DNA of 64,000 nucleotides from a plasmid. A program made the translations under genes and the position numbers. Where the stretch lies: sequence record NZ_AP019754.1; one strand, written 5' to 3'. Numbering within the stretch: the stretch's first letter is position 1; each line of letters begins with the position of its first letter. Below, piece after piece: positions 18,084 to 43,835 of the stretch. A model generated the notes under the pieces. The model was not told where the DNA came from, made no database searches, and worked only from the letters and a program-made list of their open reading frames with translations.

Positions 18084-18392
18084 TCATCAGTTCTTAAAGG
18101 AGCCTCACCCCTGATTGTTTAGAGCGTTGATACTCTCGGAAGCGCTTAAAAACAGGGCATAAATAACCGTCGCAAGCACTTTTTTTTTGACAGTGAGTAA
18201 AAAACTGAGGTTTTTAGCAATAATATTTTTTTAGAAAAAGTATGAAAGTGACGCCTTTTTCCAGGGGCAAAATTAAATGATCCTCCCACTTTATGTCACT
18301 GCTCACTTGCAGGCAGGTAACAACGAAACAAATCGATTGGAAATTAATCAACTGTGATAGTATGAGTTTCATTCCTCTAAAGGGTAACCACC

Positions 18393-18551: not shown

Positions 18552-18687
18552 CACCTGACTTTCAGATCCGACGATCTTCCCTGTTATACCGTAAAGACCT
18601 GGACCTGCAGCTGATAAATCCCTGATGCCTTACGCCCATCCTGAGAGAACGTTTCTGAACTGATTTCTCAACTGCTCCTGCGCGTTA

Positions 18688-21600
18688 ATGTCGCATGAGA
18701 GCAAGACTATGAAAATAAATCCTGGGGCATGGTTTCGCCGCGCCCGTATCATGACAAAAGCGCCAGGGCGCGCATCGTTTTCTTCCAATGACCCTATGGG
18801 GGAAAACACTCCGCGCCCGGAGCTGTTCTCAACGCCTCAGCTTGAGCGTTATGGTCAAAAGCTGGCGCATACGCATAAATTGTCGCCGGACAAGATGCCG
18901 TACTACCTGCTAAAACGATTAAGTGATAACGAAGCCGTTATTACACAAAACTGTTACACCCTTAACGCCGGTAAAAAAACCAGCATTATGCCCGCTGGGG
19001 AGTGGTTGCTGGACAACTACTACCTGATTGAGGAGCAAATTCGCAACGTCCGCCAGCACTTGCCGACCAGCTTTGGCAAAGGTCTTCCTTCACTCGCGTC
19101 TCCGCACCCTTGTCCGCGTATCTATGATATTGCTACCGAGGCGGTTGCGCATGGTGACGGACGCTGGGACACCGCCAGTCTGACCAGCTACATCGGCGCC
19201 TACCAGCAGGTCACGCCGCTGACGTTAGGGGAAGTCTGGGCGTTGCCCGGTATGTTGCGACTGGCGCTGATTGAAAATCTGCGTCGGGTCAGTATTGAGG
19301 TGGTTCAGGCTCAGCAGGAACGCAGCCTTGCTGACAGCTGGATAACGCGGATGACCGACTGCGCCGAACATGCGCCAGCTGACCTCATTCTGGTGATCGC
19401 CGACATGGCGCGTTCCCGGCCGCCACTGAGCAGTGCCTTTGTCGCGGAAATGGTTCGTCGTCTGCACGGGCAGGGGAATGCGCTGGCATTACCCTTGGGC
19501 TGGGTAGAACAACGCCTTGCCGAGCAAGGCCTCACAACCGAGTTACTGATCCATCGCTTCAACCAACAGCTTGCGGCCAGTCAACTTTCCGTCAGCAACA
19601 GTATTGCCGGGTTACGCCTGCTCAATGAAACCAACTGGGCTGATTTCGCCGAGAACATTAGTGTGGTTGAGCAGACGTTACGTCGCGATCCGGCGGGCAT
19701 ATATTCCTGTATGCATTTTGATACCCGCGATCATTATCGCCATGTGATTGAGATTCTGGCCCGGGAAAGTCAGCTCAGTGAGCCCGACGTGGCAAGCCGC
19801 ATACTGGCGTTGTCAGCAACAACCCAACCGGGCATGCCCTCTCATCACATTGGATATTATCTGATGGGAGAAGGGCGGCGTCAGTTAGATCACCATTTGT
19901 CGGTGGCGAGCTCTGGCCTCAAACGCTTACGGCACAGTCTCAACAGATATCCTCTGTTATCCTGGCTTGGGAGCATGAGCCTGTTAACCACGGCGGCCAC
20001 CGCCGCAATATTGTATGACACAGCGAGTCTGGGCATGGCCTGGTGGTTGTTACTGCTGGCTTTACCTTTGATTGTGGCGTTGAGTCAGTTGGTCAGCGAT
20101 ATACTCAGTGAAGCGACGACCCGCTTTCGGACTCCCCGACCGCTGCCACGAATGGACTTTTCTGACGGGATTCCGGTGACATCCTCCACGTTGGTGGCGA
20201 TCCCCTGCATGCTGACGAGTCACGCCGGCTTCAGCACGCTCCTCACAAGCCTTGAAGTGTGCTGGCTTGGCAACCAGGACGATAACCTCTGTTTCGCGCT
20301 TCTTACCGATTTTGCTGACGCGGCGACTGAAAGTACGGATGAACAACGCGCACTGTTTAGTCAGGCGATGTCAGAAATGCACCGGCTTAACCTGCGCTAT
20401 CCTTGCCGCCATCAGCGCTTTTATTTGCTCCACCGCTCGCCTGAATGGAATGCATCGCAGGGGATCTGGATGGGTTATGAACGCAAACGGGGCAAGCTGG
20501 CGTTGCTGAACAGCTGGTTACGTCATCCAGACACGCAATTTTCCAGCGTTGCGGGCATGCCCGCGAACCGCTTACCCGGACAGATTAAGTATGTCATCAC
20601 GCTGGACAGCGACACGCTCCTGCCACGTGATACCGCGCATAAGCTAGTCGCAACGATGGCGCATCCGTTGAACAAGCCGGAATACGATCCGCGATGTCAG
20701 CGGGTCGTCAAAGGATACGGTATTTTACAACCGGGGCTGGCAGAAGAGATGCCCCGTAACGGTCAGGGCCGCTATGCCGCGATGCGCAGCAGCGTACCGG
20801 GTAATAACCCTTATTCCATGATGTCTTCAGATATCTATCAGGATCTGTTTGAAGAAGGCTCCTTCGTCGGCAAGGGAATTTACGACGTGGATATTTTTGT
20901 CCAGGCCACGGCCAACACCTGCCCGGAAAATCTGGTGCTCAGTCACGATCTTCTGGAAGGATGCTATGCCCGCGCCGGGCTGCTGAGCGAGGTCTTACTC
21001 TACGAGCAGTACCCGAACAACTATCTGTCCGACGTCGCACGCCGTACGCGCTGGATCCGTGGCGACTGGCAACTGCTTAACTGGCTTAAGCTGCGGGTCC
21101 GAAAAGCGGATGGGACGCGGGATAAAAACCCATTGTCGGCGCTCTCTCGCTGGAAGCTGTTTGATAACCTGCGCCGCAGCCTGGTCGCCCCCGCATTACT
21201 GGTGCTGCAGTTTAGCGCGCTGCTGTGGGTGCCGAATCCGGGATACTGGCTGGGCGTTCTGGCCCTGGTCTGGCTGCTGCCTGCTGCGCTCTGTATCCTT
21301 ATCGATCTTGCCAACAAGCCGCATCGTCGTCCTCTGAGGCAACATCTGGTGCTGGTTACGGCGGGGGCACTGAAGCGACTTTCCCGGATCGGACTCAATT
21401 TTATTTTATTACCCCATGAGGCGGGCTATTCGCTGTATGCGATCGCCGTGACGCTCTGGCGCCTTGGCATCAGCCAGCGCAACCTGACGCAATGGTCCAG
21501 CCACAGTCCGGACAGCCTTCAGTCCCAACTTTCTGCCTTTCGTTTTTATCGGGTAATGTGGCTGAATGTGGCTTGTGGTGCAGCACTCACGCTTCTGACG

Positions 21601-24600
21601 CTGCTACTGGCGCCACAATGGCTGACCCTGGCCCTGATCATCAGCCTGTCATGGTGCCTGGCACCGCTATTATTGAGTGGACTGAGCCGCCCGCCAGCGC
21701 GTAAGGCGTTTCTGCCTGACCCGCAACAGAAACGACTTCTGCGTCAGACCAGCAGAGAAATCTGGGCGTTTTTCGAGACCTTCGCGACGGCGCAGGAAAA
21801 CTGGCTTCCCCCGGACAATTATCAGGAAATCCCTGAGCCAAAAATCGCGCATCGCACGTCACCCACCAATATCGGACTGTCCTTGCTGGCGAACCTTACG
21901 GCCTGGGATTTCGGTTATCTCTCTGGCGCGGATGTTCTGCAGCGCATCACGCAGACGCTAGACACGCTGGATAAGATGGAGCATTACCGGGGACATTTGT
22001 ATAACTGGTATGACACCCGCACGCTTGCGCCACTCAGCCCGCGTTATGTTTCCAGCGTTGACAGCGGCAATATGGCCGGCCACTTACTGACACTGCGCGA
22101 AGGGCTGTCAGCCATGCGTCATCAGCCCGTTTTCAACGACGTACGCCTACTGGAGGGGCTGAATGATACTCTGCATGTGCTGGAAAAATACTGGGGCCAT
22201 AACGCGCCAGCCAGCCTGGGCGTGCTGCGCACGCAGTGCCTTAATGCTGCATCGTTACCTTCAGGGCAGTTGTTAAGCGAACTCAAAAAAATGCAGGTGC
22301 ACGGCAACGAACTGGCCCGGCTGTCTCAGGAGGAAAGCCGCGTGGTGGTGCGCTGGACGGCGCATCTGGTCAGTCAACTGCAGCAGCTCTGTGATGAATG
22401 GACGACGCTGCTTGGCTGGCTACCGGTGACATATCATGCACAGGCCCTGCCTACGCTGAGTGAGCTGGCTGGCGGAATCACCCTTGAAGCGGTTATCGCG
22501 CCGACAGCCGTTATGACCCAGGCCCGGCGGCGACTGGCGATTATCAGCGAACTTGAACAACGTCTCGCTGACCATGCGCGAATGGATTTTACGTTTCTGT
22601 ATAACACGGCTACCAGCATGCTAAGTGTCGGCTACAACTGCGATACCAACACGCTGGATAAAAGCCACTACGATCTTTTGCCTTCAGAAATCCGCCTGAC
22701 CAGTTTTGTCGCTATTGCGACGAATCAGCTGCCGCTTAAAAGCTGGTATGCACTTGGCCGACTGTTTACCACCATCGATCGTGAAACTGCCCTGATGTCC
22801 TGGAGCGGTTCAATGTTTGAATATCTGATGCCGAATCTGGTGATGCCAACCTGGCACGGCAGTCTGCTGGATGAGATGAGTAAATCTGCGGTAATCAGGC
22901 AGATAAACTGGGGCAAAGAGCGTGGCGTGCCGTGGGGCGTCTCTGAGTCTGGCTACCATGCGTTTGATGTTCAACATAATTATCAGTATCAGGCATTTGG
23001 AGTACCCGGCCTTGGTCTCCGGCGCGGACTCGCCGACGATATGGTGGTAGCCCCTTATGCCACGCTGCTGGCGCTGTTGGTTTCACCGCAAAAGGCCTGC
23101 GACAATCTGCTCAGGCTGCAGGAAAACGGCGCGCGCGGCGAATATGGTTTTTATGAAGCGTTGGATTATACGCCATCGCGACTGGCAACCGGGCAGCTTT
23201 TCTTGGTTGTTCAATCCTGGATGGCGCACCATCAGGGCATGGCTTTCCAGGCGCTGGGGCATCTGCTGTTTGATGCCCCTATGGCCGGGCGATTCATGTC
23301 GAGTCCGGCGTTCAGATCGGCCAGCCTGCTGTTACAGGAGCGCGTACCCGATGAGGTTGAACTCTACAGCCCGCGTCGTCATTTTGAGTCCCATGAGGGA
23401 AGAATTAAGCCTGTGCGCTATGAACCGCGAATCTTCACGCATGCGGATACGCCGACCCCCGAGATACAATTATTGTCCAACGGGCATTACCATCTAATGA
23501 TAACGCCAGGCGGTGGGGGATACAGTCGCTGGAACAACATCGCATTGACACGCTGGCGCAGCGACAGCACCCGTGATAACTGGGGAACGTTCTGCTATAT
23601 CCGGGATCCGCTCACTGACGAGGTGTGGAGCAATACCTGTCACCCTCTGGGGGCCAGTGCGGACATCAGCGATGAAATCATCTTTACCGATGCGGGGGCC
23701 GAGTTCAGGCGCGTGCTCGGCTCGCTCAGCGTGAAAACCCGGGTTGTGGTCTCACCGGAAGATGACATCGAACTGCGTCGTGTCACCCTGATGCATCGAG
23801 GCCGAAGCCCACGAACACTCGAGCTGACGACCTATGCTGAAGTGGTGCTTGCCTCGGACATCAGCGATCAGGCGCACCCGGCGTTCAGCAACCTGTTTAT
23901 TCAGACGGAAGCCGATCCCAGGCATGATGCCATTTTGTGCCACCGGCGTGCACGCTCGCCGGATGAACAGAGCCCGTATCTGTTTCATATGATGGTGGTG
24001 CATGGCGATTGTTCAGAGAACGTTTCATTCGACACCGACAGAGCGGGATTCATCGGCAGGGGTAAAAGCCCGGCTGATGCCCAGGCGGTCAGCATGAACG
24101 GGCCGCTCAGTAACACGTCCGGCGCCGTGCTGGATCCGATACTGTCGATACGCCACGCGATTACACTCCAGCCCGGACAGCCGGTGACCATTGATATCGT
24201 TTTTGGCGTCAGCGAAAACCGTCAGCAAAGCCTCGCGCTGATGGAAAAATACCGCGATCATCCTATTGCCGATCGCGTGTTTGAACTGGCCTGGTCCCAC
24301 AGTCTGGTTGTGTTACGGCAGATGAATGCCAGCGAAGATGACGCAACTTTGTTCAACCGCCTCGCCAGCGCGGTACTTTATCCCTGTCAGGAACTGCGCG
24401 GTGACGAACAGGCCATTAGCCGAAACCGACGTGATCAGTCGGGCCTGTGGGGTTGGGGGATCTCAGGTGATTTGCCGATTGTGCTGATCAGCCTGACCAG
24501 CGAGGAAAAAATTGCTTCTGTCACCACGCTGATTCAGGCACATCGCTACTGGCGACTGAAAGGGCTGGAGGTGGATCTGGTGATTCTTAATAACAGCCCT

Positions 24601-27291
24601 GGAGGCTACCAGCAGGCGCTGCAGACGCAGATTATGGATTTAATCTATGCCGGTTCTGAAGCCAGCCTGTTAGATAAACCCGGGGGGATTTTTGTCCGTA
24701 ACGGTGAGCATTTGTCTGCCGAAGACAAGCAGTTGCTGATGAGCGTGGCCTGTCTGAGCCTGGACGATCGCGCTGACGGCATCAATGAACAACTTAACCA
24801 GCGTATTCATGCGACAAAAAAACGCGTCAGGCCTTTTGTGCCCTCGGTGACGTCAGAGAGCAATCATCACGCCGACTGGATACCGGAAACTCACCTGTTG
24901 CGCCATTTCAACGGATACGGTGGCTTTTCTCAGGACGGTCGCGAGTATCAGATCCTGCTGAGAGAAGACCAACCGACGCCAGCGCCCTGGTCAAACGTGC
25001 TGGCAAACGAGAACTTTGGCAGCGTGATTTCTGAAGCAGGCCAGGCCTACAGCTGGTTCGAAAATGCGCACGAATATCGCTTAACGCCGTGGGAAAACGA
25101 TCCGGTAAGCGATCGTAGCGGGGAGGCATTCTATCTGCGTGATGAAGAAAGCGGCGCATGCTGGTCACCCATGACCCTGCCCGTGCGCGGTCAGGGCGAT
25201 TATCTTACCCGCCACGGTTTTGGTTACAGCGTGTTTGCCCACCGTGAAAATGGACTGGACAGCGAACTGACAGTCCTGGTGGACGAGCAGGCGCCGGTTA
25301 AGCTTGCAATACTGAAGCTCAGCAACCATTCGGGCCGTACACGCAAATTGTCTGTCACCGGCTACGTGGAATGGACACTTGGGGCAACGCGCAACCACTC
25401 TGCTGCACATATCATCACGCATTCGCCCGGCCTCGCGGGGGGAAGTGCGGTCATGGCCAATAACTTCTACGGTGCTAATGGCGGGGAACGCACCGCCTTT
25501 TTCGCCGTTAACGATCCTCAGAGTACGGTAACGGGCGACCGCCGCGAGTTTATCGGGCGTAATGGTTCACTGCGCGCCCCGGCCGCCATGACGCTTCGCA
25601 GACTCTCGGGTAAAACGGGAGCCGGGCTTGATCCCTGTGCCGCGTTACAGTCGACAACCTCCCTTATTGACGGTGACCAGAAAACCTATGTTTTTGTCCT
25701 CGGCGTGGCCGATAACCCGGCACAGGCACAGGAAACGCTTGCCCGTTTTCTGCATGAGGATAATGCGCGTCAGGCGCTGAATCAGGTTCACCATTTCTGG
25801 CACAACGTGCTTGATAAGGTCGTTGTGCAGACGCCCGACAGCAGCGTTGATTTGCTGGTAAACGGCTGGCTGCTGTATCAGACATTAGCCTGCCGCATCA
25901 TGGCGCGCAGCGGCTACTATCAGTCCGGTGGGGCATTTGGTTTCCGCGATCAGTTGCAGGATACGCTGGCGCTGAGCCACGTTGCACCGGAGCGACTGCG
26001 CAGCCAGATCCTGCTGTGTGCCTCACGGCAGTTTATTGAGGGGGATGTGCAACACTGGTGGCATCCTCCGCAGGGTAATGGCGTGCGAACCCGCTGTTCG
26101 GATGACTACCTGTGGCTTCCGCTTGCGGTTTGTCACTATGTGGATACAACGGGAGATACTGGCGTGCTGGCGCAGCAGATTCCCTATCTTGAAGGGCGTC
26201 CGCTCAAGCCCGGCGAAGAATCTGTTTATGATACGCCCGTTATCAGCCACCTCGAAGAGACGTTGTGGCAGCACTGCGTAAAAGCGATTGAGCGGGGGCT
26301 AAACTTCGGCCAGCACGGCCTGCCGCTAATGGGGGCAGGTGACTGGAATGACGGGATGAATCTGGTCGGTATTGAAGGCAAAGGTGAAAGCGTCTGGCTC
26401 GGCTTTTTCCTCTACGATATTTTGCAACGCTTTGCGGCGCTGGCTGAACAGCGCCAGGATGAACGCGTGGCAGCATTGTGCTATTCAGAAGCGTTGAGCC
26501 TGCAAAAAAATCTCGAATCTTACGCCTGGGATGGTGCATGGTATCTCCGCGGCTACTTTGACGATGGTACGCCGCTGGGGACAAGAGAATCGCAGGCGTG
26601 CTGGATCGATGCGATTGCACAAAGCTGGTCCGTTTTGTCCGGCGCAGCTGATCCAGTGCGCAGTGCGCAGGCTATGCAGTCACTCGACAGCTATCTGGTG
26701 GATAACGATGCAGGATTGATCAAGTTGCTAACGCCACCGTTTGATGGTCATGGTCCTAATCCCGGTTACATACAGGGTTATCTTCCGGGTGTGAGGGAAA
26801 ACGGCGGGCAATACACGCATGGCGCCATCTGGGCGGTCATGGCGTTTGCCCGGATGGGACAAAAAGCGCGAGCGTGGCAACTATGGTCAATGATCAATCC
26901 GGTAAACCACACGCTGCAGACTGAAGGCGTTAACATCTACAAGGCGGAGCCCTATGTGATGAGTGCAGATGTGTACAGCGTTGCACCTCATACCGGCCGT
27001 GCCGGATGGAGCTGGTACACCGGTTCCGCAGGCTGGGCCTACCGTCTGGTGACTGAAGAGTTACTCGGAATAAAACGGCACGGAGAGACGCTGGTTATTC
27101 GCACTCACTTACCTGATGACTGGCCTTCGATCAGCCTGACCTATCAACACGGGAGCAGTCAGTATTTCATTAGGATTTCTCGTCACGACGGTGAACCTCG
27201 AGTGACTATGGATGGCACGCTCCTGCCGGATGACAGCATTCCTTTGCGGGATGATGGACAAAATCACAATGTCGATATTATTCAGCGCTGA
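18688..27291 (+). CDS. ndvB: cyclic beta-1,2-glucan synthase (NdvB/ChvB/Cgs family; GT84 glycosyltransferase + GH94 phosphorylase-like domains)
   Basis: 2867-aa single ORF. The N-terminus (ELFSTPQLERYGQKL...PAGEWLLDNYYLIEEQIRNV) and overall size and architecture match rhizobial/Brucella cyclic glucan synthases. It has a multi-TM region, a central GT domain and large C-terminal GH94-like domains. Confidence 0.85.
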   Translation: MSHESKTMKINPGAWFRRARIMTKAPGRASFSSNDPMGENTPRPELFSTPQLERYGQKLAHTHKLSPDKMPYYLLKRLSDNEAVITQNCYTLNAGKKTSIMPAGEWLLDNYYLIEEQIRNVRQHLPTSFGKGLPSLASPHPCPRIYDIATEAVAHGDGRWDTASLTSYIGAYQQVTPLTLGEVWALPGMLRLALIENLRRVSIEVVQAQQERSLADSWITRMTDCAEHAPADLILVIADMARSRPPLSSAFVAEMVRRLHGQGNALALPLGWVEQRLAEQGLTTELLIHRFNQQLAASQLSVSNSIAGLRLLNETNWADFAENISVVEQTLRRDPAGIYSCMHFDTRDHYRHVIEILARESQLSEPDVASRILALSATTQPGMPSHHIGYYLMGEGRRQLDHHLSVASSGLKRLRHSLNRYPLLSWLGSMSLLTTAATAAILYDTASLGMAWWLLLLALPLIVALSQLVSDILSEATTRFRTPRPLPRMDFSDGIPVTSSTLVAIPCMLTSHAGFSTLLTSLEVCWLGNQDDNLCFALLTDFADAATESTDEQRALFSQAMSEMHRLNLRYPCRHQRFYLLHRSPEWNASQGIWMGYERKRGKLALLNSWLRHPDTQFSSVAGMPANRLPGQIKYVITLDSDTLLPRDTAHKLVATMAHPLNKPEYDPRCQRVVKGYGILQPGLAEEMPRNGQGRYAAMRSSVPGNNPYSMMSSDIYQDLFEEGSFVGKGIYDVDIFVQATANTCPENLVLSHDLLEGCYARAGLLSEVLLYEQYPNNYLSDVARRTRWIRGDWQLLNWLKLRVRKADGTRDKNPLSALSRWKLFDNLRRSLVAPALLVLQFSALLWVPNPGYWLGVLALVWLLPAALCILIDLANKPHRRPLRQHLVLVTAGALKRLSRIGLNFILLPHEAGYSLYAIAVTLWRLGISQRNLTQWSSHSPDSLQSQLSAFRFYRVMWLNVACGAALTLLTLLLAPQWLTLALIISLSWCLAPLLLSGLSRPPARKAFLPDPQQKRLLRQTSREIWAFFETFATAQENWLPPDNYQEIPEPKIAHRTSPTNIGLSLLANLTAWDFGYLSGADVLQRITQTLDTLDKMEHYRGHLYNWYDTRTLAPLSPRYVSSVDSGNMAGHLLTLREGLSAMRHQPVFNDVRLLEGLNDTLHVLEKYWGHNAPASLGVLRTQCLNAASLPSGQLLSELKKMQVHGNELARLSQEESRVVVRWTAHLVSQLQQLCDEWTTLLGWLPVTYHAQALPTLSELAGGITLEAVIAPTAVMTQARRRLAIISELEQRLADHARMDFTFLYNTATSMLSVGYNCDTNTLDKSHYDLLPSEIRLTSFVAIATNQLPLKSWYALGRLFTTIDRETALMSWSGSMFEYLMPNLVMPTWHGSLLDEMSKSAVIRQINWGKERGVPWGVSESGYHAFDVQHNYQYQAFGVPGLGLRRGLADDMVVAPYATLLALLVSPQKACDNLLRLQENGARGEYGFYEALDYTPSRLATGQLFLVVQSWMAHHQGMAFQALGHLLFDAPMAGRFMSSPAFRSASLLLQERVPDEVELYSPRRHFESHEGRIKPVRYEPRIFTHADTPTPEIQLLSNGHYHLMITPGGGGYSRWNNIALTRWRSDSTRDNWGTFCYIRDPLTDEVWSNTCHPLGASADISDEIIFTDAGAEFRRVLGSLSVKTRVVVSPEDDIELRRVTLMHRGRSPRTLELTTYAEVVLASDISDQAHPAFSNLFIQTEADPRHDAILCHRRARSPDEQSPYLFHMMVVHGDCSENVSFDTDRAGFIGRGKSPADAQAVSMNGPLSNTSGAVLDPILSIRHAITLQPGQPVTIDIVFGVSENRQQSLALMEKYRDHPIADRVFELAWSHSLVVLRQMNASEDDATLFNRLASAVLYPCQELRGDEQAISRNRRDQSGLWGWGISGDLPIVLISLTSEEKIASVTTLIQAHRYWRLKGLEVDLVILNNSPGGYQQALQTQIMDLIYAGSEASLLDKPGGIFVRNGEHLSAEDKQLLMSVACLSLDDRADGINEQLNQRIHATKKRVRPFVPSVTSESNHHADWIPETHLLRHFNGYGGFSQDGREYQILLREDQPTPAPWSNVLANENFGSVISEAGQAYSWFENAHEYRLTPWENDPVSDRSGEAFYLRDEESGACWSPMTLPVRGQGDYLTRHGFGYSVFAHRENGLDSELTVLVDEQAPVKLAILKLSNHSGRTRKLSVTGYVEWTLGATRNHSAAHIITHSPGLAGGSAVMANNFYGANGGERTAFFAVNDPQSTVTGDRREFIGRNGSLRAPAAMTLRRLSGKTGAGLDPCAALQSTTSLIDGDQKTYVFVLGVADNPAQAQETLARFLHEDNARQALNQVHHFWHNVLDKVVVQTPDSSVDLLVNGWLLYQTLACRIMARSGYYQSGGAFGFRDQLQDTLALSHVAPERLRSQILLCASRQFIEGDVQHWWHPPQGNGVRTRCSDDYLWLPLAVCHYVDTTGDTGVLAQQIPYLEGRPLKPGEESVYDTPVISHLEETLWQHCVKAIERGLNFGQHGLPLMGAGDWNDGMNLVGIEGKGESVWLGFFLYDILQRFAALAEQRQDERVAALCYSEALSLQKNLESYAWDGAWYLRGYFDDGTPLGTRESQACWIDAIAQSWSVLSGAADPVRSAQAMQSLDSYLVDNDAGLIKLLTPPFDGHGPNPGYIQGYLPGVRENGGQYTHGAIWAVMAFARMGQKARAWQLWSMINPVNHTLQTEGVNIYKAEPYVMSADVYSVAPHTGRAGWSWYTGSAGWAYRLVTEELLGIKRHGETLVIRTHLPDDWPSISLTYQHGSSQYFIRISRHDGEPRVTMDGTLLPDDSIPLRDDGQNHNVDIIQR

Positions 27292-27293
27292 CC

Positions 27294-27317
27294 GTCCGCT
27301 CTGTGCCAGGAGCGGAC
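27294..27317. repeat. stem-loop GTCCGCT-CTGTGCCAG-GAGCGGAC, 3 nt after the ndvB stop; member of a small repeat family
   Basis: It shares 16+7 identical nucleotides with the element at 34721-34744 and 12-13 nt with 31305-31335. Perfect 7-8 bp stem. Confidence 0.6.
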
Positions 27318-27429
27318 ATGGATTAAATCGGAATGACCTTAGCGGCAGACAGGATACAGGCCATCACGTGCGGTAATAAACTCGCATGAGTTCGGTAAAG
27401 TCATAGGTGTGTTTTGACAGATTTGAATA

Positions 27430-27702
27430 TTATAAGCTGCTGTCAGTTTTACCCTCGTTCAGGCTATTGATGATGTGAAGGTATGGCACAGACTGCCTCT
27501 CAAATCCTGTGCTGGTAAGCTTTTTCAACCACGATATGGCCTCAAAAATTTTACACAGGCGGTTGTCGCTACAGCTGCCTGTCGCCATACTTTTCAGCTG
27601 TTCCATAAGGGAATTGATGTCAATTTCCTTATCAGTCAGCGCAAGATACAGGGCGGCTTCGCCAATTATGATGAGTCCTCTTTCTTCGTCTCGAAGTGAC
27701 AT
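27430..27702 (-). CDS. small helical protein, tentatively YmgB/AriR-family (biofilm/acid-resistance connector-like)
   Basis: 90 aa. The pattern GEAALYLALTDKEIDINSLMEQL resembles the AriR core ([23 protein letters not shown]). The call is weak. Confidence 0.35.
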   Translation of the reverse strand: MSLRDEERGLIIIGEAALYLALTDKEIDINSLMEQLKSMATGSCSDNRLCKIFEAISWLKKLTSTGFERQSVPYLHIINSLNEGKTDSSL

Positions 27703-28938
27703 ATCTCCCTCCGTAAGTTGATTTAGGCACTGGCATAACTGACTGTCCTGTCTCAGAAGATTTCTTCATTCCTGAATAACTCAGCCGTTTATTCCTGTGA
27801 AATATAACCCGCTAAATACCTGTATACTGTTCACTGTTTTCCTGTCGCTTTAGACAGTTAGTGCAGTTATCGGAACGTGAAATTCAACGTAACAATCAAT
27901 TGTGTGTATAAAATAAGCGAGCACTTCCCTTATCAACACTTTATCCGGACTTTCTTTTGGTTATCAGGTTTTCCGGTGGTTGTGCTTCTTTACCAGACTA
28001 TCGTCACAGTCATCTCTTTTCTTTAGCGTCAAATCAATGCTTTTAACTATCACTGCGACAGGCATGCTTCCTTATTCAAGGAAATCCATCCGCGAATGCA
28101 GCAGATGAATGCATCTTTACGGGTGCGGCAGGGGTAAACAGAAATGAATTAAGAAGATGTTAGCGTTCAGTTCGGGCTAAAACGCCGCGCAAGAGCGTTT
28201 TTAAATTTGTTATAATGCTAAAGCGCCCTGGCGAAAAGAAGCTCCCTCAGGTACGGGAGCAAATGTTTCACATTTCATTTTAAAAGGCCCGGGGAGTGCA
28301 CGTAATTATTAACGCCCCGTCGCTGAAAAACTTTAGTTTCAGAGGCACTTTATCAGTAAAGTTCTGGTTACAGAGCGGATTCTGCAGTGCATCCCTGTTT
28401 ATACTGAACAGTACCGTTCGCGGTCTGAGGTAAAAGTGTCTGGTTTCGCTGTTTCCTATATGCACTTTAGCATACAAAAAAAAACCTACTCAAGAGGTGA
28501 GGCGAACCAGTTGTGTGACTCCGGGCTTCTTTAACGGCGGGCTCAGCAGACACCTGCACGTTTAAATTATGCTTAAAATCAATATGCGAGTAAGCGAGGC
28601 GGTAAATAAGAGGCTTAATCTGGCTGACCTGTCTTTAATTTACCCCAAAATCTTCAGAAAATGCATTGCATTCCGGCACGGTAATGCGGAATTACTTTTT
28701 TATTTTGTGAATCCCGCGCTTTACTGATTATACGCTTTAAGTTGATGTGTTCAGTTTCGTTTGGCTTATGGTGTAAATATTATTTAATTTTATTTATCTG
28801 ACCCCGACTCGTTAAGAATAAAAGTTAGATCCCAAACAATAACCTGAAAGACAATTAATCCCCCTTGTCAGTAAAGGGGGGATTAAGTGATTCTGATCAA
28901 TGAAAACGATTATTTTATAAAGTCACGGAAAACAGGTG

Positions 28939-28965
28939 TAAATAATGCACCTTTCTAGCCGATAC
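28939..28965 (+). promoter_or_regulatory. sigma-28 (FliA) promoter for the second chemoreceptor gene
   Basis: TAAATAAT-N11-GCCGATAC versus consensus TAAAGTTT-N11-GCCGATAA. It lies about 60 nt upstream of the ATG at 29026. Confidence 0.55.
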
Positions 28966-29025
28966 CGGATTGAACCCTGAGAGGATATAAATCTCCGGGT
29001 ACTATTCAACTCCGGGGTAATTTAA

Positions 29026-30942
29026 ATGAATATTATAAGAAAAGTTACAGATTTAAAGATAGGCGCCAAACTGGGACTGGGATTCACGCTGGTCATACTG
29101 GCCTCCGTCATCATATCGGCGCTGGCGTTTCGCTGTTTTTTAAGCATTCAGGAAAATTCGGCCAAGCGCGATGTCACCGTTCAGATGCTCGACACGCTGG
29201 CGAAAGCCAGACTTAACCGCACGCTTTTTCAGTACACCCGCGACAAAAAGTTTATTGAGATTAACGGCGAGGCGATGAATCAGCTTTTTGTCTTACGAAC
29301 CAGTCTTAATAAATACTCCTGGTCGGCGGAAGGAGGGGAAAGGCTTTCTGTTCTGAGCGGTATCCTGACGCAGTATCAGGAAAAGCGTCAGGCTTTTCTC
29401 GAGAGCAGTGACAGTGCCGCGCGCGCGCTGAGCGAAATACACACGCTGGGCCTGGCATCACTGGGAGAAAAACTGGCCACCGGCCAGGCTTCGGCTCCTG
29501 CCGACGTTGTTGCGCCCCTACTTTCCCTCAGCTTCAGGACAGAGCAGGCGGCATTTTTTGTCCAGGAGTTCATCAGAAAGCCGGACGCTTCCACGCTGGA
29601 TAAATTCAGTGAAGTCAGGGACGCCATTGCTCCGCAGGTAAACCAGCTCAGAGGCGTTTCCGGCAGCGCACTCGCCGCAGTAGTGGCGGACGTGGAGCAA
29701 AAAATGGCATCGGGCTCCGCACTGCTGAATAATTATCTCCTTTCTGTGCGGACTGAAAAGCAGGCCTCAGATGAAATGACCGCAGCGGCAGGTAAGCTGA
29801 ACCAGTCCATCACGGACCTCGCGTTCTTTCAGTCAGAGATGGCTGAGAAGTATATCCAGACCGCGCTCTGGCAGATCGGTTTTGCAACACTCGCCTGTAT
29901 TGTTCTCAGCCTCCTGATTGCCTGGCGAATGACGCGAAGTATCACCGTTCCGCTGAGAGAGACGCTGTTGTCTGCACAGCGCATTGCTGAAGGTGATCTG
30001 ACCTCAGACATCACTACCTCTCGCACCGATGAGCTTGGCGAGCTGATGACCGCCGTGGGCGCGATGAACCAGAGCCTGCGTGACATTATCTCCCGTGTCA
30101 GGGACGGAGTGAATAACGTCGCCCGCGCCTCCTCCGAGATTGCAGCGGGTAACACCGACCTGTCTTCACGCACGGAACAGCAGTCGGCAGCGGTGGTTGA
30201 AACTGCTGCCAGCATGGAGGAGCTGACCTCCACCGTTAAGCAGAATGCGGAGAATGCCCATCACGCCAGCCAGCTGGCCACCGAGGCGTCACACAATGCC
30301 AGCCGCGGCGGGGAAATCATCAGTGACGTGATCAACACGATGGGAGGGATCAGCCAGAGCTCAGGTAAAATCGGCGAAATCATCTCCGTCATTAACGGTA
30401 TCGCTTTCCAGACGAATATCCTGGCGCTCAACGCCGCCGTCGAGGCTGCAAGAGCGGGAGAACAGGGAAGGGGATTCGCAGTAGTTGCCGGTGAAGTCCG
30501 AAATCTGGCACAGCGTAGTTCACTTGCGGCAAAAGAAATCGAGGCGCTGATAAGTGAGTCACTGAGCCGGGTGAGTAACGGTACCGAACTGGTTAACCGT
30601 GCCGGTGTCACGATGGAGGATATCGTCAAGTCTGTGACCCAGGTCAGGGACATCATGGGCGAAATTGCCGCTGCGTCGGACGAACAGAACCGCGGAATAA
30701 CCCAGATTGCGCAGGCCATGACAGAGATGGACACCACAACTCAGCAGAATGCCGCGCTGGTTGAAGAGTCATCCGCAGCAGCCAGCAGCCTCGAGGATCA
30801 GGCTCATGAGCTTGAAAAAACCGTAGCCGTGTTCCGTGTTCCTGCTTCCGGCCTGTTGATGCCGGAGGTTAAGGTGCCCACGCCGGCGTTAAAACACCCG
30901 TCATCCCTCAGGGCGTCGGAAGCAAACTGGGAAACATTCTGA
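29026..30942 (+). CDS. methyl-accepting chemotaxis protein, paralog of the 14362-16290 gene (helical periplasmic sensor, HAMP, NWETF tail)
   Basis: 638 aa with the same architecture. The signalling domain is about 90 percent identical at protein level to the first MCP, and it ends in ...EANWETF. Confidence 0.9.
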
Positions 30943-30952
30943 CAGCCATACT

Positions 30953-30986
30953 GCAGCCAGAGCCGTCTGTAACGACATCTGGCTGC
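30953..30986 (+). terminator. possible terminator hairpin after the chemoreceptor gene
   Basis: GCAGCCAGA-N16-TCTGGCTGC followed by ATCTTTCAG. The T-tract is weak. Confidence 0.35.
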
Positions 30987-31005
30987 ATCTTTCAGTCATT
31001 TATCG

Positions 31006-31194
31006 GTGAGGTGGTCAGTGTGTGATCTCAGCGTGCAGCATTGTCACATCGGTAAGGCGGTGGAAGCTCTTTTTTATGATGCGGAGTCAGTCACCCGATT
31101 AAAGGTAATAGGCAAACTGAGCATGATGCTCAGGGAAGAGTCTGATCCTGTCCGGAAAAACGAGATAGTAATCGCCATCACTCTTCTCAGTTAA
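31006..31194 (+). CDS. YmgB/AriR-like small protein, C-terminally short (62 codons, GTG start)
   Basis: HIGKAVEALFYDAESVTRLKVIGKLSMMLREESDPVRKNEIVIAITLLS aligns with AriR AITDKALASYF...[29 protein letters not shown]. Confidence 0.35.
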   Translation: MRWSVCDLSVQHCHIGKAVEALFYDAESVTRLKVIGKLSMMLREESDPVRKNEIVIAITLLS

Positions 31195-31304
31195 ATCATG
31201 AGAACCAAAATCAATCTGGAGGTTTAAAAGACAAAAATCATGCAAATTTATCTTAGATAACGTCCTCCTCGGTTAAGGATAGCGTTGCATCGACCCATTG
31301 AACT

Positions 31305-31335
31305 CACAGCCAGGAGCGGACATTGCTAACGATAG
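31305..31335. repeat. partial copy of the GCCAGGAGCGGAC / AGCGGACATTGCTAA repeat family
   Basis: CACAGCCAGGAGCGGACATTGCTAACGATAG. It shares a 13-mer with 27305-27317 and a 15-mer (AGCGGACATTGCTAA) with the minus strand at 34668-34684. Confidence 0.5.
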
Positions 31336-31862
31336 TCTGACTTGAACAATGGGGGCCCACTTTGGCCTAAGCGTAAAGACGCATGGCCAGTGCAACTTGC
31401 GTGACAAATGCACCGGCAGGATTGTCATGATACCTGGGGTGATGTCTCCAACTGACAGCGATTTTTTTCTGGGCCAATATGTGCAGCCACAGCACTATCG
31501 CATTACTGCCAAAAGGTATGGGTATTTGTATTCACCCAACTTTTCTCAAGTATCAATATTGCCCTTTAATTGCTTACGAGAGGCTATGACTGAGTTCGGC
31601 TGAGGCTGCAGAAGCACCGATGAACAATAATCTTTTGGACGCCGGTAACCTGCCACTGATATTTTTATCATGACAAATGCTTCTTTGGTCAGTCATATGT
31701 CCTCTTCATCATCAATCGTGACCATACATTCATCAATGTATATAAGAGTCTTTTTGACTTTCGAACGCTCCCAAAAGCCACCTGTTTAGTTATCTAATCG
31801 GGGATTTAGACCCAATGCTGATGGATATAATGTTTAGGAAAAACTAAAATCCGGGTTTTGTC

Positions 31863-33437
31863 ATGTTGAAAAGAAAAATTCATCTCCGGCTTCTTCTGAC
31901 TTCGCTTACCGCAGGTGGGGTCATTATTACTTGCATGCTGATGATAGGGGCGCTCTTTCTTTTCCAGAAAAAATACATCGAAGAAAGCTTGCTAAGCGAT
32001 AACATCGCTTACGCTCAAAAGCTCGCTGACACAACCGACCGCTACCTCAAAACTGCGCAGCAGGAACTGGCCTGGAGTGCGTCTCAGATAAATACGCTTG
32101 ATGATGTTGTTCAACTGGCCAGTGAAAGCGAGCGGTTAAGGCTACAGTCCGACTTTTTCAATACAGTCGTCGTGGTAAACCGGAACGCGGTAGTTACTGC
32201 CACATCACCTCAAAGCCTGAAGCTTGTCGGTGTCAGACTTAAACCTGTTGCCAGCCTGCAGTCTATTGATATGGAAAAACCATATATCTCCCCCCCTTTC
32301 ATCGCAGAAACTGGTAATTACGTCATTTTTATCTCTCAGCCGCTTTTCACCTCTAAAGGTAATTATCTCGGCTATATCGGAGGAACAATTTATCTCAAAA
32401 AGCAGAGCATGCTTAGCGATATCCTCAGCCGGCATTTTTTTGGAAAGGACTCTGTTGTCAGTATTGTCAGTAATGAAGGGCTGATTATTTACAGTCAAGA
32501 CCCAGGCAAGACCGGTACTAAGATGTTTCTTCCTGTCTCTATCCAGAAACGCCTGGCCGATACGAAAAGTGGACAGAAAAACGGACATAAATTACTGATA
32601 GGATATGCGAACCTTCGTTCCACTGGCTGGAATGTCTTTATGACCGGTACGTCTGAAACGGTAAAAGCTATACTTTTGAACTCTGTGCGAAATACCTTCT
32701 GGTTTATTATCGGAATCCTGGCACTGACCTCAGGTGTCATGGCACTGCTTGCGGGACGCATTGCTTTACCACTCGAGAAGCTTGCAGCAATGGTACGAGA
32801 AGGAGGTAGTAATGCTACTGCGGAGTCGGTCATCGGTACACATGCATGGTATTATGAAGCGGAATGCCTGGCTGATGCCGTTCGCGATCACCGTAGGGCT
32901 GTATCAGGACATATGGCCGCTATCAGTGATGAAGCAATGACAGATCCCCTTACGGGGCTTTACAACCGGCGCGGCTTTACTGTGACGGCTGACGAAGTGG
33001 TTGACAGTGCAGAACACTGCATCATCGCGATTGATATCGATCACTTTAAGTACATTAATGATAAATTTGGTCATGACGCGGGAGATTTTGCTTTGGTCGG
33101 ACTTGCGGAGTTACTCGCAAAGGCGAGCCGCCCGATGGACCTGGTCAGTAGGTTTGGAGGAGAGGAGTTCATTATACTAATGCCAAATACCTCTCTTCTG
33201 GACGGTGCTGCTACGGCAGAGCGCATTCGTCTGGAAGTAAACAAAGCTAACTTTCCTGGCGTAGGCAGAATGGCCGTTTCAGCGGGTGTAGCCGTTTTTA
33301 GTGGTCAGGAAGTCGCTCATGAAGAAGCTCTTCGCCATGCTGATGAAGCCCTATACTTTTCCAAAAGAGCGGGGCGAAACCAGGTATCAGTGAGTATCTC
33401 AGGAAAAATTATTGTTCCTTTCAGTACAGTTGGATAG
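31863..33437 (+). CDS. diguanylate cyclase: periplasmic Cache-like sensor, TM, GGDEF domain (GGEEF active site)
   Basis: 524 aa with an N-terminal TM, a ~250-aa periplasmic domain and a second TM. The GGDEF domain has DPLTGLYNRRGF, an RxxD I-site context and RFGGEEF. Confidence 0.85.
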   Translation: MLKRKIHLRLLLTSLTAGGVIITCMLMIGALFLFQKKYIEESLLSDNIAYAQKLADTTDRYLKTAQQELAWSASQINTLDDVVQLASESERLRLQSDFFNTVVVVNRNAVVTATSPQSLKLVGVRLKPVASLQSIDMEKPYISPPFIAETGNYVIFISQPLFTSKGNYLGYIGGTIYLKKQSMLSDILSRHFFGKDSVVSIVSNEGLIIYSQDPGKTGTKMFLPVSIQKRLADTKSGQKNGHKLLIGYANLRSTGWNVFMTGTSETVKAILLNSVRNTFWFIIGILALTSGVMALLAGRIALPLEKLAAMVREGGSNATAESVIGTHAWYYEAECLADAVRDHRRAVSGHMAAISDEAMTDPLTGLYNRRGFTVTADEVVDSAEHCIIAIDIDHFKYINDKFGHDAGDFALVGLAELLAKASRPMDLVSRFGGEEFIILMPNTSLLDGAATAERIRLEVNKANFPGVGRMAVSAGVAVFSGQEVAHEEALRHADEALYFSKRAGRNQVSVSISGKIIVPFSTVG

Positions 33438-33600
33438 GTTTAGATCTTATGCAGATGGTCACTTATTTTGCAATAAAATACAGCTGCGAAAATCTTAATA
33501 ACATACCGGTTGTAAATCAAACCGTCATGTTACCATCCTGTAGCCTTCCGCCCGGGCGAATTGTTTGCGCAGGCGCAGTCCCCATACTGAGACCTTTATC

Positions 33601-33628
33601 AGAAAAAAACGGGGCCGGACGTGAGCCC
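33601..33628 (-). terminator. rho-independent terminator (minus strand): GGGGC-N9-GCCCC then TTTTTTT
   Basis: Hairpin followed by a 7-T run when read on the minus strand. No annotated gene lies directly upstream. Confidence 0.5.
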
Positions 33629-33952
33629 CAAAGACACCATTACTTGCTTTTGATTATAGAGGTTCGCTTGCCGGCCAGCCGGTTCGCTTAATTATCATCA
33701 CTGTACAACCTGTAAATTACAAGTGCATGATTATGTTGAAATAAAATTCAGAGCGAAAATATTAATGCCTTCAGGAATCAGAATTAATTCTGGATGATTT
33801 GTGATAACAGCCTATAAGCATCGGCTGCCTGCGAGAGCTACCTTTGAAAAGAAGTAAATGATGCCCTTGAGGTATGAGCGTCGATTGTGAGGACTGCAAC
33901 AACAGCTCTGTGCCACTAACGGACATGTGCATAAACCTGATTCCGTTGATAC

Positions 33953-33982
33953 AAAAAAACGCCTGATGCAGGGCTTCAGGCG
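33953..33982 (-). terminator. rho-independent terminator (minus strand) downstream of the chemoreceptor pseudogene
   Basis: CGCCTGA-N9-TCAGGCG followed by TTTTTTT on the minus strand. It lies about 50 nt after the NWEQF stop at 34033. Confidence 0.65.
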
Positions 33983-34032
33983 TTGGGGCATATCTACATT
34001 TCAGTTCGTGATCGGAAATGCTTTTATCAGAA

Positions 34033-34781
34033 CTGTTCCCAGTTCTGATCCTGGCCGCCAGCCGCAATGGCTTGTGTTTTTTTCATGACAGGCACAGAAA
34101 TCACTTCGGGGCGGCTGTGCTTCCGGTCATTAGCGGGTGATATTCCTGACACGCTGACGGTGAATGCGCTCACCAGCCTGCACAAAGCTCATTGAAGACT
34201 CTATCAGCTCCTTGATTTCACGTGCGGAGGCAGATGAACGCTGTGCCAGATTACGGACTTCGCCAGCCACAACCGCAAAGCCGCGACCCTGCTCACCCGC
34301 ACGGGCCGCTTCGACGGCCGCGTTGAGCGCAAGGATGTTGGTCTGGAAGGCAATACCCTCAATCAGCGCAATGATGTCCGTGATTTTGGCTGAGCTTCCA
34401 CGGATATCGCTCATCGTGGTCATCAGGGTGCGCACGCGACCGGCGCTGTCTTCTGAAATATCCCGGGCGTTTCTGGCCAGGTGGCTGGCCAGGCGCGTGT
34501 TTTCTGCAGTCTGGCGGACAGTTTCACTGAGCTCAGACATGCTGGCTGCCGTCTGTTCCAGTGAGGCGGCCTGCTCCTCGGTGCGTGATGACAGATCCTC
34601 GTTACCGGCTGATATCTGTGCCGAAGCGGAACTGACCGACTGGGCAGACGCCTCTACTTTTAACACAGCATTAGCAATGTCCGCTTTTCGCTGATAGCGG
34701 ACCTCCAGCTCAGTCAGCCTGTCCGCTTTGTGCCAGGAGCGGACCTTATAAACACTAAGGTACGATCGTTTAGGGGCAGTC
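34033..34781 (-). pseudogene. chemoreceptor (MCP) pseudogene: signalling-domain fragment lacking sensor/TM/HAMP, with an internal frameshift; NWEQF terminus retained in another frame
   Basis: The 34130-34666 frame encodes [24 protein letters not shown]...[38 protein letters not shown], then diverges and stops. A different frame at 34033-34140 encodes ...MKKTQAIAAGGQDQNWEQF*. The open frame begins directly after a TAG at 34781, and no N-terminal half is present. Confidence 0.8.
34679..34744. repeat. two adjacent stem-loops sharing the stem GTCCGCT/AGCGGAC (34679-34702 and 34721-34744), inside the 5' end of the MCP pseudogene frame
   Basis: GTCCGCTTTTCGCTGATAGCGGAC and GTCCGCTTTGTGCCAGGAGCGGAC. 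The second is near-identical to the hairpin after ndvB. Confidence 0.6.
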
Positions 34782-35135
34782 TATGGAGAGTTATTATAGT
34801 GAGAACTCATCACGACCGAAGAAGATCGTAACAGATTCAGCCCCCTTGAGAGCGCAACATATAAATCAGTTGTGGACAATCCATCCGAGGCGTTCAGGCA
34901 GAGGCCAGCGCATGACTTCGCCGGTCTCTTCCTGAAAGGCAAGCATCAATATCTGTCCAGTAAAGTCTGCGTGTTCTTTGGGACCAGAGGGGCACTCGCC
35001 CAGCAAATTGCTGACATGGGCTGCTACTGAAAATATGTTATTTCTCCAGGAGGATAAAAGTTGCGAGGGTGAACGAACTGAAGGTCAGGGACGTCTGCGA
35101 CTGGACATACGTCCCTAACCAGCAGTGTCGCTTGG

Positions 35136-41856: not shown

Positions 41857-42321
41857 TTTTAGGATACCTTGGCGGTCTGCGTAAAAAATCTAGACGACGA
41901 CGTTGCGGAGTAAATCCTGGCTTCATGCGGCGGCTTTTCTGTCCCGGGGCAACCCGGTTCACCTTGCGCCTGAGCAATGTAGAACCAAACTCCAAGATTT
42001 ATATAGCGCTGATAGTGTGTTGAATCAACCATCCCTATCAGCGCAGCAACACCGAAAATTATTCACGACAAGACGACTTTTCGCCGCTCACCTTCATCCG
42101 CACATGAACGTCTTTCTCACTGACTCATTAACCGCCGCGACCCGCTCCCCTTCATCGCGCGGACACTAAACCCGCGCCCCATCTCTGGGTAGCCAGGGCG
42201 ACGATGCGCCTTGCTTCAGACGAACCCGACTGATGCCCGGCAGCGCAAGAACGTGCGTCCTGATAGCACCGCTCTCCCGTCTGGATTTTCAGCTAACCGC
42301 ATGAAATCACATCATTTAAAG

Positions 42322-42355
42322 GGCTTTGCCCGACTACGTCGGGCGTACGGCGCTG
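42322..42355. repeat. second copy of the REP-like palindromic repeat (GGCTTTGCCCGACTACGTCGGGCGTACGGCGCTG)
   Basis: See 17673-17706. Confidence 0.5.
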
Positions 42356-42634
42356 AGCCGCATCTTTGCACTTATCGCTGTAGTCCTGGTCAGGCTAAAG
42401 GTCTGGCTCAACGATCGCTTTGTGCCCGTAGCGGACGTGATAGCAGGGTAGGTCAGATATCTAATGTACAAGGCCCGATCGGGCAAGGCAGCGTGAGATA
42501 CCCTGTGGCCAGCTACGTTGAGCCTGGCAGGTAAATCGACAGTGCGCCCCTGCGTAATGTCTTTTTTTGCAATGTCTAAAAGCAGAAAACTTACATCGTG
42601 TTACGACATAAACCCCATCGCTAAAGGTGACTGT

Positions 42635-43043: not shown

Positions 43044-43835
43044 TTAGCGTAAACAATCGATATATTTTTGCGCCGACTGCTTCACCACACTGCTGGCATC
43101 GGCAATAATATCGCGCCCTTCAAATGCGCTGTAAAGTTTCCTGAAATCATAGGGTTGAAGTCGATTGACGATCGCAGTGATTGTCGCGGCGGGTAAAGGA
43201 AGCATATTGGGATAACTCCACATAAAAGAGACTGCGTTTGACCCTGCGCTAACCTGCACGATATCACCAGACAGCACGATGCCATCCTCCTTTGCCCAGT
43301 GCAGCACGGTTCCACCTTCAAAGTGTCCTCCCAGACGTAACAGTGTCACATCAGGCATGAGGGTTTTTGCCTCACCTTCCCACAACCGCAGATAGGGGCT
43401 GTCACGCATAATCCACTCGCTGTCACTGGCGTGCAGGTAAATCGGGGCATCAAAGACCGCTGCCCAGTCTTGCATGGTGCTGTAGTAATGAGGATGAGAA
43501 ACCGCAATCGCGCTGATGCCGCCCAGGGCACGAACGATGTCAATCGTGGCATCGTCAAGATCAGGAATGCAGTCCCAAAGTACGTTGCCCTGCGCGCCCT
43601 TTACAAGAAAGGCCCGCTGGCCAATAGCAAATTCAGGAACCGTTTGCAGGCTGAATAATCCCTTTTCCAGCTGAGACCATTTATTACTATGGGCCGCATG
43701 CAACGCCTCAGGTGAAATCCACTGTTGTCCTGTTGGCGGGACATACTGACGTTCGTCCTCACAGATTTTACAGCGATCAATGTGAACATCCTGCTGTTGA
43801 TATGACGTGCCGCACGTGAGGCAAATTTTGATCAT
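43044..43835 (-). CDS. MBL-fold metallo-hydrolase with N-terminal Cys4 zinc-ribbon
   Basis: 263 aa. CLTCGTSY...CKICEDE, then the metallo-beta-lactamase motif region (AVSHPHYYSTM). Confidence 0.7.
   Translation of the reverse strand: MIKICLTCGTSYQQQDVHIDRCKICEDERQYVPPTGQQWISPEALHAAHSNKWSQLEKGLFSLQTVPEFAIGQRAFLVKGAQGNVLWDCIPDLDDATIDIVRALGGISAIAVSHPHYYSTMQDWAAVFDAPIYLHASDSEWIMRDSPYLRLWEGEAKTLMPDVTLLRLGGHFEGGTVLHWAKEDGIVLSGDIVQVSAGSNAVSFMWSYPNMLPLPAATITAIVNRLQPYDFRKLYSAFEGRDIIADASSVVKQSAQKYIDCLR

Follow-up and report, generated by a model that had tools for sequence, protein, structure and literature searches.

A stretch of 64,000 nucleotides from a Pantoea ananatis megaplasmid (sequence record NZ_AP019754.1; the whole stretch is referred to here as the window) carries copies of a 24-bp palindromic site that occurs in two types, hp1 and hp2. 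These sites bound units of the form hp2-cargo-hp1, which lie in tandem and in the same orientation and whose cargo is probably exchanged by site-specific recombination, a reading to which we give a probability of about 0.65. The sites are also the target of ISCfr4-type insertion sequences (ISs) of the IS30 family. The original prediction, made from the window alone, had regarded the hairpins formed by these sites as scattered fragments of one ancestral chemoreceptor gene, with a small structured mobile or recombination element as its alternative, and it is the alternative that is supported here.

A family of 24-bp sites with two central hexamers

Each site is a 24-bp palindrome with the arms GTCCGCT and AGCGGAC on either side of a 10-nt spacer, and the sites form stable small hairpins. 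Among 151 sites, 85 are of the hp2 type (GTCCGCT-nT-GTGCCA-rr-AGCGGAC) and 34 of the hp1 type (GTCCGCT-yy-TCGCTC-An-AGCGGAC), and hybrids between the two are almost absent. The spacing of the arms is invariant, with 97 sites at one spacing (given as 12) and at most one site at any other. Outside the arms the consensus is reduced to AA-n on one flank and n-TTg on the other, the base beside the arm not being conserved. An extended terminal repeat akin to an IS30-type inverted repeat, as in the flank ATTGCTAAC, was considered and rejected as it is not general, only n-TTg being conserved. A model in which a transposon enters short palindromes was also discarded, since neither other arm spacings nor hybrids with an hp2 left half and an hp1 right half were found. 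On inspection only, the site recalls the half-site TGTCYRNTA of the Tn3/gamma-delta resolvase and, in its layout, a dif-like 11-6-11 pattern, and no claim is made from either resemblance.

The exact 24-mer, with the first loop base left free, was found in 54 stretches when 185,579 species genomes were queried. The genera include Pantoea, Erwinia, Mixta, Enterobacter, Citrobacter, Klebsiella, Yersinia, Rahnella and Idiomarina, together with alphaproteobacterial metagenome-assembled genomes (MAGs) and a Bacteroidota MAG. The original prediction had reserved the label of an ordinary repetitive extragenic palindrome (REP) for a hairpin with hundreds of copies per genome; the exact 24-mer is present in one to three. 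The two-hairpin module is found in 361 plasmids and in 201 of 5,426 Escherichia coli genomes and is annotated in none of them, and the sites cluster in variable regions of plasmids and prophages. In an alphaproteobacterial MAG, hp2 is preceded at 46 nt by a partner with the same arms and the central hexamer GGGTCA/TGACCC (L016 6845-6868; L048 1025, 3723 and 6384), which could represent a third, taxon-specific type.

Arrangement of the sites and their cargo

The arrangement was followed in two samples, namely 567 kb of related loci selected by means of the hairpin and 120 metagenome loci chosen independently via IS ends. Consecutive sites are co-oriented in 103 of 106 cases in the 567 kb (p=5e-27) and in 20 of 22 in the IS-selected loci. 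The distance that separates an hp1 from the following hp2 comes to about 42 nt in 25 of 31 instances in the first sample and 35-42 nt in six of seven in the second, and the distance from hp2 to hp1 ranges from 363 to 7385 nt and from 531 to 2524 nt, respectively. As the former distance is fixed and the latter is gene-sized, the unit is to be read as hp2-cargo-hp1.

The cargo is made up of ordinary accessory genes, found on either strand, with LysR, GNAT, MFS, SDR, SMR, AraC, TetR, ASCH and VapC as examples, and identical sites flank ASCH, VapC, DUF6650, LysR, GNAT and phage tail genes across many genera. A 595-bp ASCH unit is 98.7% identical between Pseudescherichia and Enterobacter within unrelated flanks, the two copies differing at position 8 of hp2 and, in hp1, from position 13 onwards, and at least five further plasmids of other genera match this unit only from the start of hp2 to the end of hp1. 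In a P2-like prophage of E. coli ST131, the tail-fibre assembly gene is followed by hp2, cargo, hp1-hp2, further cargo, hp1 and the sheath gene. A lone hp1 may close a unit and a lone hp2 may open one, as at window position 27294 and at the P2 locus, and most units contain neither an IS nor an IS remnant.

Points of exchange

One comparison covers six P2-like phages with differing cargo. Positions 1-15 of hp2 and 10-24 of hp1 are constant with the backbone, and positions 16-24 of hp2 and 1-9 of hp1 change with the cargo. This split places the exchange point within the invariant central hexamer or at its edge, and it never falls in an arm. Such a pattern is, judging from the aligned sequences, the apparent footprint of conservative site-specific recombination at core-type sites. 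For many of the E. coli P2-like prophages that were sampled, hp1 is where the homology on the upstream side of the sheath gene begins (1,696 genomes match the query).

The window is 99.3% identical to plasmid pPANA10 of P. ananatis LMG 5342 across the shared parts, and the gene ndvB forms the left backbone of a strain-variable region, with this same level of identity up to 27317, the last base of an hp2 site, where the homology stops. The only difference between the two plasmids within this site lies at position 17, on the cargo side. The window plasmid and pPANA10 carry 7 kb and 15 kb of cargo that is not the same in both.

Insertion of ISCfr4-type elements into the sites

ISCfr4-type elements insert specifically at the central GC of the hp sites, with a 2-bp duplication. 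Each of four intact 1222-bp copies of ISCfr4, carried by unrelated plasmids, has one half of a hairpin on either side, with a 2-bp GC duplication at the hairpin's exact centre; when the halves are rejoined, one insertion rebuilds a site of the TCGCTC type and three rebuild the GTGCCA type. The same was seen in metagenomes, where 120 loci retrieved by the IS ends alone gave 123 unique flanks. The arm GTCCGCT, with at most one mismatch, is found at the exact offset in 84 of these, compared with 26 of 24,000 random positions (0.1%), and GC lies beside the IS tip in 85. All four types of half-site are represented, and the IS enters both site types in both orientations. The transposase of the ISCfr4-type elements has the architecture HTH_38 plus rve. 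In 10 of the 123 flanks AC is found in place of GC at the IS tip with the arm still there, as it is at position 237 of L062.

Copies of the site in the window

The copies in the window (Table 1) were sought with the pattern GTCCGCT-N10-AGCGGAC, allowing up to two mismatches and with 100 shuffled sequences as the control, and by a repeat search. Four matches were observed against 0.24 expected, and none of the shuffles reached four. The hairpin sequences that the original prediction had reported are all present and, as it had held, lie far above chance. The partial copy that it had listed is CAGCCAGGAGCGGACATTGCTAA at 31307-31329, and the 15-mer said to be shared with the opposite strand, AGCGGACATTGCTAA at 31315-31329, is indeed the reverse complement of 34670-34684. 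Three copies had escaped notice, namely the half-site at 17808-17820 and the degenerate copies at 33901-33924 and 42413-42436. All copies in the window are on the plus strand, and the arms are perfect at 27294, 34679 and 34721. Only 2 nt separate the ndvB stop codon (27289-27291) from the hp2 at 27294, and the bases 3' of 27317 read ATGGATTAAATC. The sites at 34679 and 34721 start 42 nt apart, the standard hp1-hp2 distance, and this pair is the junction between two adjacent units.

Table 1. Sites, IS remnants and genes in the window
Feature	Position	Strand	Description
Left half of split hp2	17808-17820	+	GTCCGCTTTGTGC, made up of GTCCGCTTTGT + GC; adjoins IS end
ISCfr4-type right-end remnant	17821-18087	-	ISCfr4 1-268, 91.8%; terminal inverted repeat and frameshifted 3' end of transposase gene
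ndvB-like cyclic glucan synthase	18688-27291	+	2867 aa; Pfam GH94 domains; cargo of IS-bracketed segment
hp2 site	27294-27317	+	GTCCGCTCTGTGCCAGGAGCGGAC; central hexamer GTGCCA; left edge of strain-variable cargo region
MCP2, intact chemoreceptor	29026-30942	+	HAMP and signalling domains; cargo
ISCfr4-type left-end remnant	31256-31308	-	ISCfr4 1169-1221, 92.5%; 53 bp including terminal inverted repeat; also matched by an inverted-repeat pattern
Right half of same split hp2	31309-31321	+	GC + CAGGAGCGGAC; the partial copy of the original prediction
dCache-GGDEF diguanylate cyclase	31863-33437	+	Cargo; preceded by small open reading frame 31349-31603
Degenerate hp2 copy	33901-33924	+	AACAGCTCTGTGCCACTAACGGAC; 75%; central GTGCCA intact
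Chemoreceptor fragment	34130-34666	-	Half a signalling domain only; both ends truncated
hp1 site	34679-34702	+	GTCCGCTTTTCGCTGATAGCGGAC; centre TCGCTG, one mismatch to type hexamer TCGCTC
hp2 site	34721-34744	+	GTCCGCTTTGTGCCAGGAGCGGAC; central hexamer GTGCCA
Degenerate hp2 copy	42413-42436	+	GATCGCTTTGTGCCCGTAGCGGAC; 79%; found in pPANA10 as well

The partial copy and the unreported half-site belong together. When translated, the minus strand of 17821-18120 gives the C-terminus of a transposase of the IS30 type. At the DNA level this remnant is about 92% identical to ISCfr4, an element annotated on many plasmids, and the plasmid matches bear the annotation IS30-like element ISCfr4 family transposase. 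The remnants at 17821 and 31256 have the same orientation, and the repeat search returned 31284-31324 as an inverted match to 17805-17845. Once one duplicated GC is removed, GTCCGCTTTGTGC and GCCAGGAGCGGAC, the flanks on the outside, rebuild a perfect hp2, GTCCGCTTTGTGCCAGGAGCGGAC. In P. ananatis LMG 2665 (L005 3021-3044) the orthologous site is intact and has the same left flank, and the homology ends at window position 17820. Since the half-sites rebuild one site and LMG 2665 holds that site intact, the halves at 17808 and 31309 make up a single hp2 that a 13.5-kb segment, bracketed by ISCfr4 ends and containing ndvB and MCP2, has split. The original prediction had insertions bring in these two genes in the course of scattering a chemoreceptor gene; their arrival by insertion holds, as segment 17821-31308 with both ISCfr4-type ends within one hp2, and the scattering does not.

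Searches for known elements were negative. Rfam gave 0 matches across the whole window at gathering score, a scan of 27000-35000 for intrinsic terminators called none of the hp sites, which have no T-tail, and a literature search with the sequence strings of the hairpins found no paper containing them. A 61-nt direct repeat with 74% identity is present at 17656-17716 and 42305-42365 and includes the short hairpin GCCCGAC-TAC-GTCGGGC. Each of its two copies has an hp2 copy 100-150 nt to its right, namely the 17808 half-site in one case and the degenerate copy at 42413 in the other.

The remaining observations concern the genes. Between the hp2 at 27294 and MCP2, the 1.7 kb of 27318-29025 has no long open reading frame (ORF), and a 90-aa ORF found there (27430-27702) has no Pfam match. 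A second full-length chemoreceptor is encoded at 14365-16290 on the minus strand and shares 58% protein identity with MCP2, which explains a 950-nt inverted repeat. In Buttiauxella izardii (L027 20-1590) the 5' end of ndvB and a gene for an MBL-fold hydrolase are adjacent and divergent; the corresponding matches in the window are 18606-19303 and 43171-43772, with ndvB and the MBL-fold gene (43044-43835) 25 kb apart. The Buttiauxella order suggests that ndvB may have been relocated in Pantoea.

Proposed mechanism and its alternatives

In the exchange proposed here, conservative site-specific recombination would take place between like sites, hp2 with hp2 and hp1 with hp1, as the comparative breakpoints suggest. 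Two heterospecific core sites would allow the exchange of a whole cassette, and the recombinase would presumably act in trans. The units are found on enterobacterial plasmids, at the Z/fun variable locus of P2-like prophages and on genomic islands; in the window, the sites delimit the strain-variable cargo region downstream of ndvB. A broader proposal is more tentative and, in our estimate, falls somewhat short of even odds. Here hp1 and hp2 may be the heterospecific cores of a widespread, integron-independent cassette-exchange system served by an in-trans and possibly host-encoded recombinase, further site types may exist, and a dedicated IS30-family clade may parasitise the sites. Such a system would shuffle accessory modules of one or two genes among plasmids, P2-like prophages and islands across the Proteobacteria.

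Several observations weigh against exchange by site-specific recombination. No enrichment of recombinases or transposases was found with Pfam among 406 neighbouring ORFs, and BLAST clustering of 430 ORFs gave no recombinase enrichment either. A 200-aa tyrosine recombinase of pPANA10 was considered as the enzyme and rejected as a one-off, being present on few plasmids only and not linked to the sites. No empty site and no circular junction was found, and hybrids, as noted, are almost absent among the 151 sites, so the proposal does not account for the first gain of an hp2...hp1 pair by a backbone. The right edge of the region that varies between the window and pPANA10 (34289) is not at a site. 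In an all-versus-all comparison, 18 of 86 internal ends of homology blocks fall at sites, an enrichment of about 7-fold that is not exclusive. BLAST alignments, moreover, run through the conserved sites, such that breakpoints can be placed from a few polymorphic positions only. As a separate observation, more than 600 Klebsiella plasmids carry, with about 93% identity, an 80-nt stretch that lies upstream of the gene for the pPANA10 tyrosine recombinase (L057 12683-12770).

The lack of a linked recombinase would be expected if the sites were passive REP-like elements, stabilising mRNA 3' ends or acting as insulators, that travel with accessory genes and are swapped by ordinary or short-homology recombination over 24-66 bp without a dedicated enzyme. 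Their position just 3' of stop codons, such as that of ndvB, and their stable small hairpins are in keeping with this, and REPs are known IS targets (PMC1525189). We nevertheless consider it unlikely. A structural element should tolerate changes in its loop, whereas the loop here is strictly conserved with two discrete central hexamers. Copy number is low, at one to three exact copies per genome, polarity is kept in 103 of 106 cases although cargo genes lie on either strand, the exchange point is always at the central hexamer in the six phages, and the sites are neither followed by a T-tail nor called as terminators. The established insertion specificity of ISCfr4 raises a different prospect, that the IS30-family element itself makes and moves the cassettes through composite or dimer intermediates after entering two sites, which would then be mere hot spots. 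IS30 does form dimers and joins distant copies, yielding insertions, deletions and cointegrates (PMC9333248), and the 13.5-kb ndvB-MCP2 segment is bracketed by ISCfr4 ends within one hp2. As a general explanation this is improbable, as most units are free of any IS, their ends are unlike the ISCfr4 inverted repeats, and the regeneration of an intact site requires a precise IS loss that is foreign to copy-out-paste-in transposition. Nor does it explain co-orientation or the fixed order of hp2 on the left and hp1 on the right, because the IS inserts into both types in both orientations.

The integron-like layout of the arrays invites the thought that the 66-nt hp1-spacer-hp2 junction is one folded single-stranded site, comparable to attC, IS200/IS605 or REPIN structures and serving as substrate for an integrase of the integron type or for an HUH enzyme. 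In its favour, the sequence of hp1 is similar to that of an inverted hp2, complementarity exists between the conserved flanks AA-n and n-TT, and the long hairpin is the minimum-energy fold in L060 (-19.2 kcal/mol) and L059 (-17.8 kcal/mol). Other copies, however, fold as two small hairpins at minimum energy, the long attC-like hairpin and the two small ones being isoenergetic. Units closed by a lone hp1 or opened by a lone hp2 are also at odds with it, as are the absence of enrichment of the IntI, RAYT and TnpA families among the 406 nearby ORFs, the lack of fit to the attC R-box consensus GTTRRRY, and cargo that lies in either orientation and, in the P2 Z-region, has promoter signals annotated within it. 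Overall, this reading seems very improbable. Least credible of all, with hardly any probability left to it, is the fragmentation of one ancestral chemoreceptor gene, for which it could be said that the hp1 at 34679 abuts the 5' break of the chemoreceptor fragment and that an open frame crosses both hairpins. This frame had been taken for the HAMP/linker region, but no chemoreceptor or HAMP homology is present in the stretch, no HAMP signal was detected in the frame running through both hairpins, and the chemoreceptor homology stops at about 34615-34666, just outside hp1. Distribution refutes the idea independently, as identical sites stand beside unrelated genes in dozens of genera.

Significance

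The swapping of accessory genes at fixed hot spots of plasmids and prophages is largely unexplained, and this includes the P2 locus, which holds anti-phage systems. For the other P2 hot spot, a recent study could only speculate on recombination at the cos ends (PMC9122126). An observation made 20 years ago at one phage locus now becomes a precise 24-bp site with two types and rules of arrangement, present on many plasmids and in many genera. This definition makes the recombinase directly searchable and gives annotators a way to recognise the boundaries of units. The ISCfr4-type elements emerge as insertion sequences with site specificity, a point of importance when rearrangements in the resistance plasmids of Klebsiella and Enterobacter are interpreted. 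For the window, the origin of the ndvB-MCP2 segment and the strain-to-strain differences in cargo are explained.

Relation to known systems

This kind of site is already known, albeit obscurely, and the window adds members to it together with a clear example of IS insertion. In the GenBank entries AJ512679 and AJ512685 ('proviral Z-region' of P2-EC45 and P2-EC67), the last base of hp2 is also that of the annotated left inverted repeat, and in the P2-EC67 entry the first base of hp1 opens the right inverted repeat. The entries are ones that we take to belong to Nilsson, Karlsson & Haggard-Ljungquist 2004 (Mol Biol Evol 21:1). Promoter signals are annotated inside the cargo in these Z-region entries. 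The inverted repeats were reportedly first noticed in phage P2 by Nilsson et al. in 2004, who are said to have proposed site-specific recombination. A review summarises that work as describing inverted repeats that make site-specific recombination possible (PMC8987985). The Z/fun repeats of the P2-like coliphages (AJ512679-AJ512685) thus have the same sequences, bound variable cargo and carry the same recombination hypothesis. That work covers one phage locus and annotates repeats of about 100 bp, whereas here the core is narrowed to 24 bp and two types, with an exchange point at the central hexamer, a site-targeting IS and a tandem rule that extends to plasmids and islands of many genera; parts of this may stand in the 2004 paper. 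No report of an enzyme that recombines these repeats was found. In the P2-like phages L066 (80-91 and 1279-1290), L067, L068 and L069, the backbone just outside the sites itself forms inverted repeats, with AATCTGACA immediately before hp2 and TGTCAGATT immediately after hp1.

The insertion behaviour of the ISCfr4-type elements is closest to the hot-spot mode of IS30, in which a nearly palindromic target is entered at its central 2 bp and 2-bp repeats result (PMC9333248). The hp sites share all of this, being near-palindromes of about 24 bp in which insertion falls on the central 2 bp and leaves a 2-bp direct repeat, and the transposase likewise combines HTH and rve domains. The target differs in sequence (GTCCGCT-N10-AGCGGAC with a central GC) and is itself a dispersed, conserved element that bounds cargo, whereas the IS30 hot spot in lambda is by comparison an incidental sequence (PMC9333248). 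Specialised ISs also enter the loops of short extragenic palindromes in the REP/BIME elements, as with IS1397/ISKpn1 and ISPpu9/10 (Tobes & Pareja 2006, PMC1525189). REPs, however, are chromosomal, species-restricted and present in high copy, with tens to hundreds of chromosomal copies, and carry a GTAG or CGTC tag; the hp sites show neither this abundance nor the tag, and are of low copy, mostly on mobile DNA and shared across classes, with a 10-nt spacer and two fixed cores. Membership of the CGTC-tagged REP superfamily was rejected, as its stems of 8-9 bp and loops of 4-5 nt contrast with the 7-bp stem and 10-nt loop found here.

Integron attC sites contain the boxes R''/R', RYYYAAC...GTTRRRY. 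Like attC arrays, hp arrays consist of co-oriented, gene-sized cassettes with a composite palindromic site of about 66 nt made of two simple sites. Unlike them, they have no R boxes and no adjacent IntI or attI, no enrichment of any integrase family was seen near them, their cargo may have either orientation and ends with a single site are possible. In the pdif modules of Acinetobacter plasmids, XerC/D sites of one kind, in inverted orientation, bound resistance modules. As with the hp units, short core sites bound discrete modules in varied plasmid contexts and no recombinase is encoded by the module. The sequence of the hp site is, however, unrelated to dif, and its units are bounded by two heterospecific, co-oriented sites instead of inverted like sites.

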